A stretch of DNA of 64,000 bases, taken from positions 101,618,001 to 101,682,000 of the forward strand of contig NC_092346.1 of the NCBI RefSeq assembly GCF_963676685.1, read 5' to 3'. Of the stretch, positions 1,451 to 63,430 are shown piece by piece. Both the position numbers and the translations under genes were made by a program. Source of the stretch: Mytilus edulis (Eukaryota). The stretch's first letter is position 1, and every line of letters begins with the position of its first letter. Under the pieces are notes generated by a model, which saw nothing but the letters and a program-made list of their open reading frames with translations, was not told the origin of the DNA and made no database searches.

Positions 1451-4400
1451 CTGAAATAAAAAAATAAAAAAAACAATTTAACAAAAAATAAATGTCTAGA
1501 AATGAATTTGAGATGTCATATCTAGTCTTATTTTATGCCACTTGTCTTAAACATGCATGAAATATTTGCCATTGGACATTAAGCAACCAACAATCAACAT
1601 TAAAGCCACATATCTCAATGTCTAGTTGGTTTTTATCTTGCTTTTTTAAACAAGAGATACTGCAAGCAAAGGTTCACAAAGCTGGATAAACAGATGGATT
1701 GATATCACAAACTGTACACTTCAGGAAGATCAGGTTTTAACAATTACTAAGATGTAAATCTTAAATCTGACATGGATTTGACTGGTGCCTGAAATCTAGC
1801 CATTATTTGTCTTACATGTAGTTTGCTTGGCCATAACTATTCAAATACAACTTGTATTTATAGGTTTATATTACCTCATACAGTTTCTTTTCATGCCTCC
1901 TTTTTATATGTTTATTCAGAGCTTGTTTTGATGAGAATGTCTGGTTACAGCCTTCTTCCTCACACCTATAAATAATACACAACTTTTTATATGTTTATTC
2001 AGAGCTTGTTTTGATGAGAATGTCTGGTTACAGCCTTCTTCCTCACACCTATAAATAATACACAACTTTTTATATGTTTATTCAGAGCTTGTTTTGTTGA
2101 GAATGTCTGGTTACAGCCTTCTTCCTCACACCTATAAATAATACACAACTTTTTATATGTTTATTCAGAGCTTGTTTTGATGAGAATGTCTGGTTACAGC
2201 CTTCTTCCTCACACCTATAAATAATACACAACTTTTTATATGTTTATTCAGAGCTTGTTTTGATGAGAATGTCTGGTTACAGCCTTCTTCCTCACACCTA
2301 TAAATAATACACAACTTTTTATATGTTTATTCAGAGCTTGTTTTGATGAGAATGTCTGGTTACAGCCTTCTTTCTCACACCTATAAATAATACACAACTT
2401 TTTATATGTTTATTCAGAGCTTGTTTTGATGAGAATGTCTGGTTACAGCCTTCTTCCTCACACCTATAAATAATACACAACTTTTTATATGTTTATTCAG
2501 AGCTTGTTTTAATGAGAATGTCTGGTTACAGCCTTCTTTTTCACACCTATAAATATTAAATACACAACTTTTTATATGTTTATTCAGAGCTTGTTTTGAT
2601 GAGAATGTCTGGTTACAGCCTTCTTCCTCACACCTATAAATGGATGATAATAGGCATCAGTTAGCATAACCAGGACTTGACCCAATGACACACAGGTTCA
2701 TGATAATATTGTGGGTTCAGACAGATAATCATGTGTCATGTGAACTGGCTTCAACTAGATCCCTGATAATAGTTATTTATATAATCAAATATTTACCGCT
2801 TGATTTTGTGATCTTGAATACTGTAAACCAACTAAATTTACGTAAACCAATTTTTGCAATTTTCGCGAGAAGAAAAAAAATAATGCGAATATATATAAAT
2901 CTTCGTGAACATTTAAAAATTGGCTCTCCCTTGTTTAATAAGATCAAGTAAATTTGCAAACTGTAACCAGGTGCTCCGCAGGGCGCAGCTTTATACGACC
3001 GCAGAGGTCGAACCCTGAACAGTTGGGGCAAGTATGGACAAAACATTCTAGCGTGATACAGCTCTGAATTTGGATTGTGATCAAATTTTTGACATTACAT
3101 GGTTTTTTTTTTACACAAAACAAATGTCAAGATTTTACAAATTTTACAATTAAAGATTTCTTCTTCAAACTTTCTAAATCTAAAATGAAATAGTTGACAC
3201 AGCATAGGTTTCTGACACAGAATGAATGTGGTCTAATGAACTTAAAAGTTTATTTTTGCCTTTTAGCAATTCACTATGCTGTTGAATATTAATCCTCTCA
3301 AAAAAATGTTTGAAGAAATTTTCTTTTTATTTATGAAATCTGAAATGAGAAAAATTTAACCCCCCCCCCTTTTTTCACATCCCTGTTTCCCTTTTTCCAA
3401 AACTGATATCAATTCAAATTTCTAATGGAGTTTGCAACAATAACTACTCTTTTAAATACATCATAAAATATTAAAATGTAATATAAAGTGCTTGTTATCA
3501 CTGAATGGTAAAGATTGGTTGGTAGTAAAAGTGAATATACATTGTTTATTGTATAAAACAATAAAAAAAACTTCATCAGCAACATTTTATATTATGCAAA
3601 TTTCCAATGAAGTTATTTACATAAAGTTATTGGCAAATAAAAATAGAAAATGACATCATAGTCATGTCTGGCAAATGTCCAACATACATTATCTAAAAAC
3701 ATTTTAGATAAGATAAGGAAATAAGATGTAAAAAAAACTGCTTGTTATCACTGAATGGTGAAGATTATTTTAATTTATCAGTTGGTAGTAAAAAGTGAAT
3801 ATACATTGTATATTGTATATAACAAAGATTTAAGTTGATTCTGGACAAAGAAAGATAACTCCAATTAAAAAAAATCTTGCTATTGCACAATATTTTGCAA
3901 TTAGATATTTCTTGCTTACTATTCTGGACAAAGAAAGATAACTCTAATTAAAAAAAAATTTGCTATTTCACAATATTGTGCAATTAGATATTTCTTGCCA
4001 TTGCGCAATACTGTGCAATTGAAAAGACTTGCTATTGCACAATACTTAATATGATAATTTTAGATCCTGATTTGGACCAACTTGAAAACTGGGCCAATAA
4101 TAAAAAATCTAAGTACATTTTTGGATTCAGCATATCAAAGAACCCCAAGATTTCAATTTTTGTTAAAATCAGACTAAGTTTAATTTTGGACCCTTTGGAC
4201 TTTAGTGTAGACCAATTTGAAAACAGGACCAAAAATGAAGAATCTTCATACACAGTTAGATTTGGTATATCAAAGAACACCATTTATTCAATTTTTGATG
4301 AAATCAAACAAAGTTTAATTTTGGACCCCGATTTGGACCAACTTGAAAACTGGGCCAATAATCAAGAATCTAAGTACATTTTTAGATTCAGCATATCAAA

Positions 4401-17300: not shown

Positions 17301-20300
17301 ATCTCGTCTTTGACTATCTACTGAAACTTTGTGTTCTTTAGTTGCATGCTTATTGACGTATATAGATATAAGAAGATGTGATATGAGTGCCAAAATGAGA
17401 GACATTTCCAATCAAGTCACAATTTTTAAAAGTGAACAATTATAGGTGAAAATACATTCTTTTATTCTTCTATTTATAATAGATTAGCAGCTAAGATAAT
17501 CTCCCACTTAGTATTCTGTATGGTGACGTCATTAAATCTATGCTTATACCTTTACATTTATATCTTTATTGGATTCTGACGTTTATGGTTACACTTACAA
17601 TTCTTTTAATAGTTCATGTCAGTCAATTCAAACAAAGGTATTAGGAAACTTTCATCAAGTGAAGTAAATAATTGAAAATATGACGTCTTGCTCAACGGAA
17701 ATAACCACAATGCTAATTGTATTGACACTTATATTCCTTGTATATACATGTAATATAATTTTCTAACATAATTGATTTATGCAATTTTTATGAACACTTG
17801 TAAGAATATTTCAATTCTTGGAGAAGTAGTCTTAAGACTATTTCCGGTATGTGAGTGTTGCATATATTTAGGAAATGTAGTCTATACTCTGACAGTCTCC
17901 ACTTCTATAAGAGAAACGTAAAGAAATTGCAAATCACATGGAAAGGTTACGTACTCTTATTATATACATCATAAAGGAATAAACACAATTTTGATTATTC
18001 AAAAATGTTAAAATACTTGATCTATAGGTTTCTGTCTTTTGGAATTCCTGTAATGGACAGTCAATGGCAGAATTAAGGAAAGCCAATATTACTGGTGTCA
18101 GACCTACAGATATAAACAGCCCAGAAGCTCACACAGGACTCAGCATAGACCAAATCATTCTTAGAGCAATGGGCGGCGGAATTGAAGGTAAAGTCCAAAT
18201 TCACAACATAATCTAATACATGTAACTCCACTTTCAAATATGTGTAAGAAATAAAAATATCATGATAAGGTATGAAAGTTGGTTTACTTTATGAACTGTT
18301 CATTGCTGTTGGTAATGCTTGGATGTCACCATGGAAGTATTATATTGACAATATTAAACTTCCATGGTGTAACTTCAACAGCAACAATTTCAACGGTCGT
18401 GTGAATATAGATAACACAGTCGGTAAATAAGTAGGAATAGTTTCGTTTTTAATGTTGATTACAAGAATAATAAAGATGCATAAAAGAACTTGTATAATGA
18501 AAGACAAAGGCATAAGTAAAAGCAAAGCAACAATAAACTTTAATACAGTATTACTGTTTGCTCGGGGTTACTGTAAACTAGACCAAAGTACTTAACCTGC
18601 TGAAATGAAACCTAAAATCAGCGGCTGCACATCATATTTCATTTATTGTTAATCATACAAATGTTTTGCATAATGGCTCACACAAATTTACAGAACAAAA
18701 TATTTGTGTAAGCTATATAAATTATAACAAGCATACCTAATTTCCTTAATTGCTCTGTATGTAGCTGAATTTTATTAAGTATATGGTGGTCTGGACTGGC
18801 ATGAACCAAAAGTGTATACATTACTCTAAGCTGAAATTGCACAAAACAAACAACTGGTGCAAGGTTTTTCAGTCAATACGTTCATATTTGAATCAATCTA
18901 CAAGCGAACAACTCTTTACAACATGGGTTTATTGTAAGTTTACCTTAAAATGAACAGAAAAGGAAACAAACCAAAGGGATCCTAAGTTCAACGAAAGGGA
19001 ACATAGCAAGGCGAAATATTTATAAAAGTTGTATAATCCGATCAAAAAGGGTATTTGCATACGCCCTCTATCATCTATGCATCTATGCACCAACATGAAT
19101 CCACCCCACCATTGCCTAACTCTGAATGACTCAACTTAACTTGATTTCTTCCAATAGTTGCAGCACAAAGTATGGTATCCCCTGATGGAATGATCTTAGC
19201 GGAACTAGACATGCTGTTGACAGAGGAACAATTTAGTACTTTATATGAGCCACCAGAATAGTAAGTTCACTTTTAACTGGTCATTATCCACTTAGAAATA
19301 TTTTACTTTATATGAGCCACCAGAACAATAAGTCAACTTTCAACTACTCATTAATTAGAGGTACACGACTTCATATGATCCTGTGGAAAAGTATGTTTAC
19401 ATTTAACTTGACACAGATATTTTGTGAGGAGAAATAAAGAACTGAAGAAGGCCAATGGCCGAAACGTCTCAAAAAATTGGTTTATTGATACAATTACAGA
19501 AAATTTGGACAAATGTCAATGCCACCGAGACTATGTCTCAACAACACATTCTTTCCATTACGACTGATTATGCAAATGGTAAGGTAAATATTTCTTCAAC
19601 TTTCTCAATGAGTTTTGACATAAAACTCAATTGTAACGGTAAACCATTCCTTTTTTTTTTTTAATTTTGCTTGAATCATGAAGTCGAAATACTAACCCTT
19701 TACGTGTTTTTAAAACGGTAATCAAAAAGTCATATCTGGAACCAAATCTTTTTTTTTATATTTTGTTATATAAAAGCATTAGTTTTATTTCCTAGTGGTG
19801 ACCTTCGTGAGATGCCTTTCTTTGAACACAGAAGAAAGAGAAGGAAAGCCGTAAGACAATTAGACCTGAGGTGGGCGGAAGGCGTTATGCCTTATTATTT
19901 TGCTGATGGTCATTTTTGTAAGTACTTAATAGATTCTAGTATCAGTGAATCTTTTGTCTACAGTAGAGGTTAAATATACATGTAATGAATTTAACATTTC
20001 AGTTTTAAAACATGTTACATTTGACATTATATAAAATGAGTATGACATTCCTTGATTATGATTAAATTCATTTCATAAAATTGAATTCACAGAAATATTA
20101 GAAATATGAATAAATATAAGTATGCATATAAACATAAATCTATTGTATTGTATTACTAATCCATATACTATTTCATTCCAGCGGACAAAGAGAAATACCT
20201 AATCAAAGTAGCAATGCGTGAGTGGGAAAAATACTCTTGTGTTAAGTTTAGGGAGAAAACCCGTAGCGACCGGAACTATGTTAGATTTCAGAATGGAATG

Positions 20301-23300
20301 GGGTAGGTATCTATCCGTTGTGGACCTAGCACTACATATTTTGCATTTATGTTAATTTTAAAAAAGCATGTTGCAGTCTACCATTGAAGCAGAAATTGCG
20401 TTTCATCTCGGTGAAAACATTGATCTTTAATTGTAAGCGAGGTTCGGGCAGATTACCCTCTGGTTTTCTGTGTAACGTTGTTCAGACATTTATTTGTATT
20501 TGCATTTGTCCTTTTGATATTGTTTTTTTTTGTTAACTTACGATGCTTCATTAACTTTATAATGTTCTAACCTTTTCATTGACCGGTACAATGCTATATT
20601 CAGAATATAAATGGGTAAGTATAGTATATCTTTACTGATAAACGCTTGGAAAATTTCAGACAAATATCCATACCATAAAGACATCAGTAGTTACCGCTGT
20701 TCAAAGGTAATAACCTGATTAAGAGAAAACAAATTCGGGTTTCAAACTAAGACCGAGGGAAACATATCAACTATAAGAGTAAAAAAACACAACAACAGAA
20801 AAAGTGCAGCACTCGCCAATGCAACATACATAGAAACGAACTTTAGATAACAACTGCCATATTCCTGACCTGTTAAGAAAAAATGGTGCGTTGAACCTGG
20901 TTTTATTGCTAGCCTAAACTCTCGCTTTCATGACAATGTTACAAATACCGCTACAATGACAACATTACGTGACAGGAAAAAATAACTTGGGCTTTATCAA
21001 ATACCAAAAATGGTAAGATATTTTCTAGCGATCTTAGCTTTGTTAGATATCAGAAGGGAATGTTAACATATTCACACAACTAGCGACCATAGTTTTGTTA
21101 AATATAAAAAGAGAATGGTCAGATATTCATACAATTAGCGACAAGAGCTTTGTAAGATATCAGAAGGGAACTGTCAGATTTTTATACAACTAGCGATCAG
21201 TGCTGAGTTAGATATAAGAAGGGAATGGTCAGATATTGATACAACTAGCGATCAGTGCTGAGTTAGATATAAGAAGGGAATGGTCAGATATTGATACAAC
21301 TAGCGATCAGTGCTTTGTTGGATATCAGAAAGGAATGGTCAGATATTGATACAACTAGCAACCAGTGCTTTGTTGGATATCAGAAAGGAATGGTCAGATA
21401 TTGATACAACTAGCGATCAGTGCTGAGTTGGATATAAGAAAGGAATAGTCAGATATAGATACAACTAGCGATCAGTGCTGAGTTGGATATAAGAAGGAGT
21501 TGGTCAGATATTCATACAACTAGCGACCAGTGCTTTATTGGATATAAGAAGGGAATGGTCAGATATTGATACAACTAGCGATCAGTGCTGAGTTGGATAT
21601 AAGAAGGGAATGGTCAGATATTGATACAACTAGCGATCAGAGCTGTGCGAGGTATCAGAAAGGAATGGTCAGATATTGATACAACTAGCGATCAATGCTG
21701 AGTTGGATATAAGAAGTGAATGGTCAGATATTGATACAACTAGCGATCAGTGCTGAGTTGGATATAAGAAGGGAATAGTCAGATATTGATACAACTAGCG
21801 ATCAGTGCTGAGTTGGATATAAGAAGGGAATGGTCAGATACTCATACAACTAGTAATCAGTGCTGAGTTGGATATAAGAAGGGAATGGTCAGATATTGAT
21901 CCAACTAGCGATCAGAGTTGTGTGAGGTATAAGAAGGGAATGGTCGGATATTGATACAACTAGCGATCAGTGCTGAGTTGGATATAAGAAGGGAATGGTC
22001 AGATATTGATACAACTAGCGATCAGAGCTGTGTGAGGTATCAGAAAGGAATGGTCAGATATTGATACAACTAGCGATCAGTGCTGAGTTGGATATAAGAA
22101 GGGAATGGTCAGATATTGATACAACTAGCGATCAGTGCTTTGTTGGATATAAGAAGGGAATGGTCAAATATTCATACAACTAGCGATCAGAACTGTGTGA
22201 GGTATCAGATGGGAATGGTCAGATATTCACAAAACTGGCAACTAGAGCTTTGTTAGATATCAGAAGGGACTGGTCAGATATTCATACAACGTGTGACTGT
22301 AGTACCAGGATCGAATTGATAGATAAGCATATACTTTATGACTGGAGCTATATGCAAATAAGATTTCAGATGCTCGTGGTGTGTATTTATTAAAGATGTG
22401 ATAGCAAGCCGTTTGGTTTATGCAGTTTACTTAGATTTGTACTCTAATTGCATAAAAATAACATAGTGGAGTTTTCTATTTTATAAATATATAATTAAAG
22501 AAGAAGAGAGGAAGAATGATAAGACACGGTCAGCTTATTTCATTTATATATTTGTACATAACTTGTCAAGTTAGAATAGTTTTATTTTAACTTCAGATGT
22601 AATTCTCAGCTTGGAATGGTTGGCGGAATGCAAGTTCTCAATCTTGACGTTAATGGGTGCAGATGGGTATTTATGAGAGAGAACAATTCTAATAAAAGTT
22701 AAATGTTTTGCTTGCCTTTCTGATTTTTACTGAGTTGTGTACATTAAAAAGAAAGGATAATAGAACATTTAATTTAAATTAGATTTTAAAAACAGCATGT
22801 TATCCGTTAAAATAGTTATTTTTGAGGATTATTGTGTATCCCATATTCTTTTAATATGTTTTTGGTGGTGTGCTTGGTTTATATGACATTTTGTGCTTCT
22901 TTGTTATTTATTTGTTTGTTTTTATAGTGATTCAGATTATAACACAATGTTGACTGCTGTATCCCTATTTTTGACATTTTTGCCTATTGTGTCTGTTGTT
23001 TGTTTGTTTTGTTCACAAATCGTTGTGAATACTATGGAACTTGATGCGACTGTCATACAAGTGAGAGGTTTAGCTAGCTTTCAAACCAGGTTAAATCCAC
23101 CAATATCTACATAAGCATGTACCAAGTCAGGAATATAACAATTGTTATCCATTCGTTTGATGTGTTTGAGCTTTAGATTTTGCCATTTGATTAGGGACTT
23201 TCCTTTTTAAATTTTCCTCCGAGTTCAGTGTTTTCGTGATTTTACTTTTTTCTTTTATTTATATGGTTATTTTATATCAAGTTCTTGTTCATGCCTTTAA

Positions 23301-56100: not shown

Positions 56101-59100
56101 TGTGTCAAACATGGATTTTATAAAATATAAATCCAAAGTAGAAAATAGAAACACAGAAAGGTATCCACAAAAACATGTTGGTTTACATTCCTCCTATAGA
56201 GAAATGTTCTATGTCATATGGATTGTAAAATGTGGAAGAGATTTTACTTTCAAAAATTGTAAAATTAAAACTCTGAACATGCATCAATTTCAAGTTACAA
56301 TAAATTTTATGTTGTCAGGCAAGGAATTTAATAAAATAACACCATTTAAACGACATTAAATTAGATAACTATAATTTCTTTTACTTATTACTCAAGCAAA
56401 AATAGTTATAACCTTGAAATATTCATTCAAAATCTATACTATATCATAAAAATGTGTATACCGGTATATAAATTCCTGTTTTCAAAACTGCCAAATGTCT
56501 TTTTTATAATATACAATTTCTAGCATATATGAGCTTGAAAGATGGTTACAGATTTATTTTTAAAGAAAATGTGATTAGTTCTGCCAACATTGAAAGTCAG
56601 GTAACAAATAACCTTATGTATTCACATGAGTAAAATTGAGAATGGAAATGGGGAATGTGTCAAAGAGACAACAACCCGACCAAAGAGCAGACAACAGCTG
56701 AATTTTCATGATCAAGTAGAACTTTCATTAAATCTGATTGATTTGATTTTTGGTGTCTTTTAATGCCACTTTTAAGCACCGCATTTTTGCTATTTCGTGG
56801 AGGCCAATTTTTTTAAAACCACAGCCCTTGATAGGAAAACTGACAATCTTAGTCAAGTCGAGTGCACAACCTCAGTTGACTGGCTAGTGATTACAGTAGT
56901 AACTACTTAGACCACTCAGGCACCGAGGCCCCTTCATTAAATTTGAAAATTTTCCTTATTCAGCATTTGGGATCATACTTACTTTTGCTTGAATTCGTAA
57001 AAGAGAATTCAATAAGTTTGTGAACAGACTTGGGTAGGGATAATTAAGATAATATTCTGTGTTTTTTTTTTTTACATATAAATGTATTCTGTGTTGTGTA
57101 AGTTACCTGGCAGAGTTGCCTTTCTTCAAATGTTTGTTTCTTTAAGAAATTACACCAAAATATCCCAAAAATCCTGTTATACATTTAAGGTAGTGCCTAA
57201 GTCACATTAACAAAATTGTTTTATTTTTATCAATACTTCTGATTATTTATTTAACTAGTCAATCAACAATTCACATCATGTATATGGGATGTAATTCTAA
57301 GCAAAATATATCAGTTTTTGGAACCTACCACATCCATTTTCTCTTCTTTTTCTTTCTTTTCTGCTTCTTTCTTCTTCTGTTTGGCTGTAATACTAAGAAC
57401 AGCTGTTTCTACTTTCTCTTTTGCCTTTTCTTTCTTGTCTTCCAATGGTGGAGGATAAGCATAATGCGATGGTTTAGCATTAGATTTGAACTCTAGAATC
57501 GGCATCTGTATAATACAACATATATCTTAATCAAAGTCAGTCATTTTCCAATAACAACTTCTGTAAATCTTAGAGGGATTGTCACTTTGAATGTTCTGCT
57601 GACAAAAAATGAAGTACATAATACAAGATTGGGAAAACCACGAAATCAAATAAACACTAAAATGCAGGTAATCCTCAATCCACGAAATTGATACCCACGA
57701 AAATAAACAGAATTGACAATTAAAACTGAAAATTGTAATTAAAATAAATCTTTGAAAATGTGTGATTTCTAAATCTACTACTGTTTTATCTTTGTAATCA
57801 CCCATACATATATCGGACGAAGCTGACGACGACGACAACGTGATACCAATATACAACAACATTTTTTTTAATTTTTGCAGTCGTATAAAAACTGTTTGTT
57901 TGACAAAGATACAACCTGACCAATGGACAAAATGATTGCAATACAGCCCCCAACTTTTAGAGGTTGGGGTATACAGTAATAAGAGGAAAACTTAAATGTA
58001 GGATTTTCTGTGGAATAAGGGTGCTATTTGATATTACTTACCTTGAGGTCTTCATTTAGACCAATCAGACATGTTGGTTTGAATGACAAACACAGGAAGT
58101 GGCTAAGTGGATACCAGAACCAGAACTGTGTGAATACCAACATACCAACAACAGCCTCTAGATTGGTGTGGCCCATCTTAGACTGAAGAGAGATTGTCAT
58201 GTTACGACCACCTACAAAACAGAATAAAGATTACTCTAGATCGGTGTGGCCCATCTTAGACTGAAGAGAGATTGTCATGTTACGACCACCTACAAAACAG
58301 AATAAAGATTAAAGATTAATCTAGATCGGTGAGGCCCATCTTAGACTGAAGAGAGATTGTCATGTTACGACCACCAACAAAACAGAATAAAGATTAAAGA
58401 TTAATCTAGATTGGTGTGGCCCATCTTAGACTGAAGAGAGATTGTCATGTTGTGACCACCTACAAAACAGAATAAAGATTAAAGATTGATCTAGATTGGT
58501 GTGGCCCATCTTAGACTGAAGAGAGATTGTCATGTTGCGACCACCTACAAAACAGAATAGTCATGCAGGCATTTCAAACTTAACTACGTATTTAGTCTTA
58601 GGTTTTCTATGTTGTGTCATGTGTACTATTATTTGTGTGTTTGTCTTTTTATTTTTAGCCATGGTGCAGTTTATTTTCAATCCATGAGTTTGAATGTCAT
58701 TTTAGTAACTTTGCCCCTCTTTTATTGTGTTTTTGGTAACTTTGCCCCTCTTTTATTGTGTTTTTGGTAACATTGTCCCTCTTTTATTGTGTTTTTTGGG
58801 CAAGATGAATACATGCCATGTTACTAGACTTTGCTAAAACTGCTGTTTAAAGAACTCAGTCCTTTAATTTAAGTGTTATTATAATCATTATTCAGCTTCT
58901 AATTGAACATGTACAATCTTTGTCATTTGTTAGATAGTTGTCTCCATACAACATATGTGTTAACTGTACCTACCATCTTCTCTTTGAACCAAACATTATA
59001 TAAAAAATCTTGCTGACACACATCATTCTAAATGATCTGTGACACCATAGTGTATAAACATAATTAATCTGATGTCATTCTCTAATATTATTGGGAGTAG

Positions 59101-61767: not shown

Positions 61768-63430
61768 GAAATAGACAATAGTCTGACATAAACATTTTGT
61801 TCAGATAAAAGTTTAGACCTGTGAGTGTCTTATTCATCTTTATAGTTTTAGAAATAGACAATAGTCTGACATAAACATTTTGTTCAGAGAAAAGTTTAGA
61901 CCTGTGAGTGTCTTATTCATCTTTATAGTTTTAGAAATAGACAATAGTCTGACATAAACATTTTGCTCAGAGAAAAGTTTAGACCTGTGAGTGTCTTATT
62001 CATCTTTATAGTTTTAGAAATAGACAATAGTCTGACATAAACATTTTGTTCAGAGAAAAGTTTAGACCTGTGAGTGTCTTATTCATCTTTATAGTTTTAG
62101 AAATAGACAATAGTCTGACATAAACATTGTGTTCAGAGAAAAGTTTAGACCTGTGAGTGTCTTATTCATCTTTATAGTTTTAGAACTAGACAATAGTCTG
62201 ACATAAACATTTTGCTCAGAGAAAAGTTTAGACCTGTGAGTGTCTTATTCATCTTTATAGTTTTAGAAATAGACAATAGTCTGACATAAACATTTTGTTC
62301 AGAGAAAAGTTTAGACCTGTGAGTGTCTTATTCATCTTTATAGTTTTAGAAATAGACAATAGTCTGACATAAACATTTTCTTCAGAGAAAAGTTTAGACC
62401 TGTGAGTGTCTTATTCATCTTTATAGTTTTAGAAATAGACAATAGTCTGACATAAACATTTTGTTCAGAGAAAAGTTTAGACCTGTGAGTGTCTTATTCA
62501 TCTTTATAGTTTTAGAAATAGACAATAGTCTGACATTAACATTTTGTTCAGAGAAAAGTTTAGACCTGTGAGTGTCTTATTCATCTTTATAGTTTTAGTA
62601 ATAGACAATAGTCTGACATAAACATTTTGTTCAGAGAAAAGTTACGACCTGTGAGTGTCTTATTCATCTTTATAGTTTTAGAAATAGACAATAGTCTGAC
62701 ATAAACATTTTGTTCAGAGAAAAGTTTAGACCTGTGAGTGTCTTATTCATCTTTATAGTTTTAGAAATAGACAATAGTCTGACATTAACATTTTGTTCAG
62801 AGAAAAGTTTAGACCTGTGAGTGTCTTATTCATCTTTATAGTTTTAGTAATAGACAATAGTCTGACATAAACATTTTGTTCAGAGAAAAGTTACGACCTG
62901 TGAGTGTCTTATTCATCTTTATAGTTTTAGAAATAGACAATAGTCTGACATAAACATTGTGTTCAGAGAAAAGTTTAGACCTGTGAGTTCCTTGTTCATC
63001 TTTATAGTTTTAGAAATAGACAATAGTCTGACATAAACATTTTGTTCAGATAAAAGTTTAGACCTGTGAGTGTCTTATTCATCTGTATAGTTTTAGAAAT
63101 AGACAATAGTCTGACATAAACATTGTGTTCAGAGAAAAGTTTAGACCTGTGAGTGTCTTATTCATCTTTATAGTTTTAGAAATAGACAATAGTCTGACAT
63201 AAACATTTTGTTCAGAGAAAAGTTTAGACCTGTGAGTGTCTTATTCATCTTTATAGTTTTAGAAATAGACAATAGTCTGACATAAACATTTTGTTCAGAG
63301 AAAAGTTACGACCTGTGAGTGTCTTATTCATCTTTATAGTTTTAGAAATAGACAATAGTCTGACATAAACATTTTGTTCAGAGAAAAGTTTAGACCTGTG
63401 AGATGTCTTATTCATCTTTATAGTTTTAGT
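61768..63430. repeat. 83-bp tandem array, ~20 near-identical copies, in a PSMD1 intron
   Basis: Unit GAAATAGACAATAGTCTGACATAAACATTTTGTTCAGAGAAAAGTTTAGACCTGTGAGTGTCTTATTCATCTTTATAGTTTTA. Confidence 0.95.

Follow-up and report, generated by a model that had tools for sequence, protein, structure and literature searches.

A 55-bp minisatellite in an intron of a Mytilus astacin gene probably derives from the end of the gene's own exon 5

The window analysed here, a 64-kb stretch of Mytilus edulis DNA on contig C3, raises the question of whether an ordinary-looking intronic minisatellite can be a disguised copy of an exon end. The original prediction held that the 55-bp array in intron 5 of a gene in the window is a detached copy of the exon-5 donor junction. 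The gene encodes an astacin protease with EGF-like and ShK domains and lies at 14287-34400, where its ten exons join into one open frame. The label "exon 5" is correct, as judged by the ten-exon gene model and by RNA contigs, which confirm the joints for exons 3-6 (among them the joint 19917>20182 into exon 5). A protein attributed by its source to Mytilus galloprovincialis matches exon 5 with 100% identity, and the Pfam domains are Astacin and ShK. The features of the locus and of the other junction arrays in the window are listed in Table 1.

Table 1. Features of the locus and junction arrays in the window, in order of position; the three arrays on the minus strand were called from sequence only.
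Feature	Position	Strand	Remarks
62-bp array, ~31 copies, C2H2 zinc-finger exon end with GTAAGT	1-1416, on into L064:9494-10000	-	Attached donor mirage
83-bp array, acceptor and most of zinc-finger exon	1900-2641	-	True exon apparently the last unit
Attached single copy of exon-3 end and donor, same gene	19295-19353	+	Score 75; 0/1000 shuffles
Exon 5	20182-20302	+	121 nt; ten-exon open frame, RNA joints, Pfam Astacin
Source segment, 38 exon bases copied in unit	20264-20301	+	Ends one base before exon end
True donor GTAGGT	20303-20308	+	Sequence and RNA contigs
Single-copy spacer, 266 bp	20311-20576		Flat DNA depth; alignments not above shuffles
Decayed exon-5 junction copy with ATGGGTAAGT, GTAAGT at 20615	20581-20623	+	33/43
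Decayed copy of abundant dispersed mussel repeat	20662-20980 (ends approximate)		Window copies and DNA depth
Truncated outer unit ("unit 0") with ATGGTAAGA, GTAAGA at 21013	20989-21022	+	16/5000; nhmmer E 2.1 over 64 kb
23 units of 55 bp	21026-22290	+	Array in intron 5
5' edge units 1-3	21026-21190	+	Divergent, more exon bases kept; arrangement differs in 2/4 DNA runs
Homogenised interior, 18 units, ATGGTCAGA type	21191-22180	+	Mean pairwise identity 90%
3' edge units 22-23	22181-22290	+	Divergent, more exon bases kept
Exon 6	22597-22666	+	Gene model and RNA joints
85-bp acceptor-junction array before exon	58157-58559	-	

TRF places the array at 21025-22290, within intron 5, with 23 copies of a 55-bp unit. 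Unit 1 (at 21026) matches exon positions 20264-20301 at 30 of 38 bases without a gap, which reproduces the match originally claimed; each of the 23 units agrees with this segment at 25-30 of 38 bases, and their majority consensus at 29/38. When the consensus is searched without gaps against both strands of the masked 64-kb window, the exon end is its top match (score 20); none of 100 shuffled units reached a score of 19 there (maximum 18). An nhmmer profile of the array finds the exon end with an E value of 2.4e-5 (64 kb). Within 19500-21000 the best 38-base match of unit 1 has 30 identities; the shuffled controls gave 21-25, and none of 300 reached 26. Alignment of the array consensus and edge units to exon 5 with shuffle statistics had been proposed as a check; by both the shuffles and nhmmer the match is beyond chance, and it is confirmed that the unit derives from the gene's own exon edge.

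The units are not all alike. Identity among units is 78% at the edges of the array and 90% in its interior, and the edge consensus matches the exon at 33/38 bases, as against 28/38 for the interior. In the exon frame the edge consensus reads SDQSFVRYQKGM where the exon reads SDRNYVRFQNGM, so the predicted likeness of the edge units to the exon in its own frame is borne out. The edge set (units 1-3, 22 and 23) was picked after inspection of the data, and 409 of 33,649 five-unit sets reach 33/38, while symmetric edge sets give 30-32/38. We take the contrast between edges and interior as supportive of an exonic origin, not decisive.

The array is specific to this locus. A 220-base search of the 1.37-Gb genome gave eight matches, all inside the array, and two 28-base patterns, allowed up to three mismatches, matched there and nowhere else in the genome (17/17 and 5/5 matches). 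The genome-wide search that the prediction had called for thus returned the array alone, and not a dispersed family of repeats. As regards the direction of copying, homologues from Mytilus and from oyster retain the peptide NYVRFQNG, and each of the five substitutions that separate the edge consensus from the exon changes an amino acid, which argues that the changes arose in the array and that the direction was from exon to array. The sequences indicate that the array is the copy and has drifted since.

In four DNA runs, which bear three organism labels, the flank differs from that of the window by less than 1%; the comparison spans these runs and reaches no distant species with an earlier state. 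The succession of first units differs from that of the window in two of the four runs; the array is therefore polymorphic. All four runs carry one extra A relative to the window at 21005, which may be an allele or an assembly error.

The array is not contiguous with the exon: the distance from the donor to unit 1 is 723 bp. In shuffle-tested alignments the spacer nearest the exon shows no likeness above chance to the exon, the junction or the array unit. It is followed by a copy of the junction whose score of 43 was reached in none of 3000 shuffles of 20330-20985, and to which nhmmer gives less support (E 0.63 in 64 kb). The prediction saw in this copy an intermediate between exon and array. 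A junction copy with GTAAGT does exist at this position, but it is not intermediate: at each of the five sites that are derived in the edge units it agrees with the exon (one of them depending on gap placement), and it shares with the units only 15-19 of 34 bases, as against 25/34 with the exon. We therefore regard it as a sister relic and not as an ancestor of the array. A TTCAG lies 11 bases before its GTAAGT, and 20604-20614 is a possible cryptic micro-exon of 11 nt, absent from four RNA contig sets.

A dispersed repeat does lie between the array and its source, as had been noted, but it fills only about 320 of the 723 bp, under half. It has other copies within the window, and contig depth over it rises to approximately 10,000 times that of the flank in all four DNA runs; both of its junctions are present in every run, and no haplotype lacking it was found among the four. 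Immediately before the array, the copy claimed near 21010 was recovered as a partial unit with its GT at 21013, and 16 of 5000 random 86-mers score equally. Neither the spacer nor the sequence after the array yielded further units, and no contribution of exon 6 was found (70, 183 and 752 of 1000 shuffles).

In all four RNA runs, one of which (X15) was taken as RNA by guess, a contig leaves exon 5 at 20302 and reads on into exon 6, showing that the true donor is used. No contig in the four RNA contig sets ends at 20614 or uses the GTAAGT at 20615, and one unspliced contig (depth 2.4) spans 20588-20680. RNA rows with a low share were left aside for any statement on habitat or expression. Splicing in the assembled RNA is thus normal and at the true site; rare forms drop out of assembled contigs, so that rare use of internal sites could escape them, and the splicing check stops short of the array.

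We consider it likely that the array goes back to a local duplication of a short stretch at the end of exon 5, probably donor included, which drifted off and was later re-amplified as a neutral minisatellite. Slippage or repair would have made short tandem copies of the exon end, comparable to the attached copy at exon 3. The most upstream donor would have stayed in use, as it does in the assembled RNA and by the mechanism known from human F7, and the copies would have cost little. The copies have decayed, and at least one dispersed repeat now stands between them and the exon. Finally, one distal mutated copy, in which GTAAG had probably become GTCAG, would have multiplied through unequal exchange, with homogenisation of the central units; this would explain why the interior is uniform and the edges have stayed more exon-like, as the divergence of the units suggests. 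The array is likely to be harmless, and we propose no function for it.

The inclusion of the donor depends on the end of the unit. The profile match to the exon stops at unit position 38; of the 17 bases beyond it, 8 agree with the first part of intron 5 when the shift is optimal (P 0.45). When the tails are instead aligned at their GT, that of the edge units compares with the true donor at P 0.45 and with the 20615 copy at P 0.35; for the partial unit the corresponding values are 0.10-0.16 and 0.04-0.07. Of the description of the array as a detached copy of the exon-5 donor junction, exonic origin and detachment stand, and inclusion of the donor is likely. The same values favour a rival explanation, by which intron 5 received a copy of 38 bases of exon 5 that lacked the donor, and this piece, joined to 17 unrelated bases, was amplified; the array would then never have been of the junction (mirage) type and the 20581 copy would be independent of it, in keeping with the absence from that copy of any of the five edge-derived changes. 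On the other hand, the likeness to the exon breaks off no more than two bases from the donor, the tail of the unit begins GTCAG or GTAAG, the partial unit carries ATGGTAAGATAT, and junction copies are common in this genome; moreover introns drift on both sides, so that loss of signal over 17 bases is to be expected. We judge capture of the exon piece alone to be unlikely, and the partial unit together with the 20581 copy suggests that the amplified unit probably once held the donor.

The array might be retained because it serves the astacin gene, by modulating splicing, say, or as a pool from which alternative exon ends are drawn. This would suit the identical flanks in all four DNA runs under their three labels, and the two strong motifs of donor type, GTAAGT (20615) and GTAAGA (21013). 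Against this, the site at 20615 is used by no RNA contig and covered by the single unspliced one, the frames of the array are closed, the donor motif is decayed in the register of 22 of the 23 units, and unit content differs among individuals, and we hold a function to be very improbable. A coincidental match, or a dispersed family of satellites with an accidental resemblance to the exon, gains something from the size of the genome: such a score is expected about once per 1.37 Gb (scaled from E 2.4e-5 per 64 kb), and very many arrays are scanned. It is scarcely credible for an array that lies 0.7 kb from the exon, on the same strand, and matches the exon end, with edge units that lean towards the exon and no other genomic locus.

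Several other origins were considered and rejected. A dispersed satellite or element-borne repeat was discarded, the unit being without any unlinked locus in 1.37 Gb. With regard to a paralogue as source, five other astacin-like exons were compared over the whole of their 3.1-kb loci and nowhere exceed 21/38; the closest paralogue of exon 5, at G000:C3:88246647 (L020), with 62% protein identity, the same intron position and donor GTAAGA, has no match to the array. A tandem alternative exon cassette is made improbable by the 55-bp period, which is no multiple of 3, by the 25-30 stops in each frame of the array, and by the decayed donor. A large tandem duplication of the exon end with about 300 bp of intron was dismissed, as the flanks are unlike (449, 823 and 134 of 1000 shuffles were as good).

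Arrays of exon ends have been described in other animals. In amphioxus, "mirage" minisatellites occur in Adh3 and in the globins BflGb6 and BflGb9, with degenerate repeats in intron E8.1 of BflGb13 (PMC3087553), and also in PGBD5 and troponin C (PMC3902484). Ebner et al. reported that mirages show concerted evolution with excluded edges, that splicing is unaffected, and that mirage-derived intronic repeats degenerate (PMC3087553); degeneration of junction repeats inside introns has thus already been proposed. Like a mirage, the mussel array consists of tandemly repeated exon-end copies within the neighbouring intron, and it shares with mirages concerted evolution, divergent edges, haplotype variation and normal splicing (PMC3087553). 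It differs in lying 723 bp off the exon, behind unique DNA, the sister copy and the dispersed repeat, whereas the terminal unit of a mirage is the true junction; and its donor is unrecognisable in the amplified unit, amplification apparently having followed decay. In human F7, the 37-bp VNTR of intron 7 is a minisatellite that, like the mussel array, was built from the end of an exon and lies in the intron after it, with the most upstream donor used (PMC1557585); however, its first element spans the boundary and its pseudo-sites are identical to the true donor, neither of which applies to the mussel array. Because the terminal unit is not the true junction and a unit that spans the boundary is no more than likely, we regard the 55-bp array as likely a worn and displaced variant of the mirage/F7 type and not a member of it. 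Our literature search, which covered openly accessible articles, found no listing of any detached exon-derived intronic minisatellite and no mussel mirages.

Within the astacin gene itself, a single tandem copy, now decayed, adjoins the end of exon 3 and its donor (19226-19353, period approximately 69 bp); in this copy the donor is now ATAAGT, and we read it as an early stage of the process that gave rise to the intron-5 array. The zinc-finger gene of the 1-1416 array seems to have a 141-bp donor array too (L064:6048-7334), and we take the exon behind the 58157-58559 array to be RPN2/PSMD1-like, of the proteasome. At 61768-63429 there is an 83-bp array of 20 copies whose unit, composed of TTCAG, 16 bases and GTGAGT, resembles repeated micro-exon frames; no source exon was found for it. 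The arrays at L047:4952-6068, L099:3979-4747 and L089:8419-9729 each begin with a unit in which GTRAGT follows an open frame, making these candidate attached donor mirages. The attached junction arrays of this genome (1-1416, 1900-2641 and 58157-58559; L047, L064 and L099) have unit sizes similar to that of the 55-bp array and likely arose by the same process, but are 89-97% homogeneous and have the exon copy as terminal unit. A 66-bp tandem array about 21 kb long (L028:8569 to L030:9428), 40 kb downstream of the window, is 96-97% homogeneous. A solo unit at L101:3351-3408 lies 727 bp from a 70-bp array (L101:4135-5180, contig C12) to which it is near-identical; an inverted-repeat element of about 290 bp stands between them, and we note it as a young case of a cut-off unit, without an evident exon.

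A survey of 1.064 Mb, consisting of the window and 100 stretches of 10 kb, identified 95 arrays with a period of 20-200 and at least four copies, 84 of them without a match elsewhere in the sample. A match at 100-2500 bp with a score of at least 18 was present on the same strand for 25/84 and on the opposite strand for 4/84. Ten arrays with detached matches were inspected; the matches proved to be solo units, sister arrays or continuations of the array, and an exon was evident in none of them. Pfam searches of 46 frames over detached matches gave weak hits in repetitive frames only, with a frame picker that missed the focal exon's own frame. No second exon-derived detached case was found in the 1.064 Mb, by a survey that is insensitive and detects short exons poorly. 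The survey accordingly speaks neither for nor against the predicted hidden exonic origin of many such satellites. GTRAGT is present in 13 of the 84 locus-specific array rows (one array being counted twice at a stretch border) against 4.7 expected, a result given by 1/500 shuffles, and several of the arrays that bear it follow exon-like frames; the looser GTRAG[TAC] is not enriched in the units (15 against 11.6 expected; 89/500 shuffles). Copying of junctions appears to be common in this genome.

A broader reading would place these arrays in a life cycle of bivalve junction arrays, running from attached copy to array, decay, detachment by insertions and re-amplification. A sizeable share of locus-specific intronic minisatellites would then be disguised exon ends, with loss of the donor permitting expansion far from the exon, and three stages might stand side by side in the astacin gene: the exon-3 doublet, the 20581 relic and the 55-bp array. 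We regard this generalisation as doubtful.

This is a single locus with no sign of function, and the decay of such repeats has already been proposed in print, so that its value is modest. It nevertheless provides a clean case of minisatellite origin, with the source fixed by protein conservation, and indicates that a repeat of junction type can go on amplifying after it has parted from its exon and lost its splice signal. If such cases are common, counts based on arrays that touch an exon would underestimate the number of exon-derived repeats, and loci of this kind may serve as a clock for minisatellite turnover.
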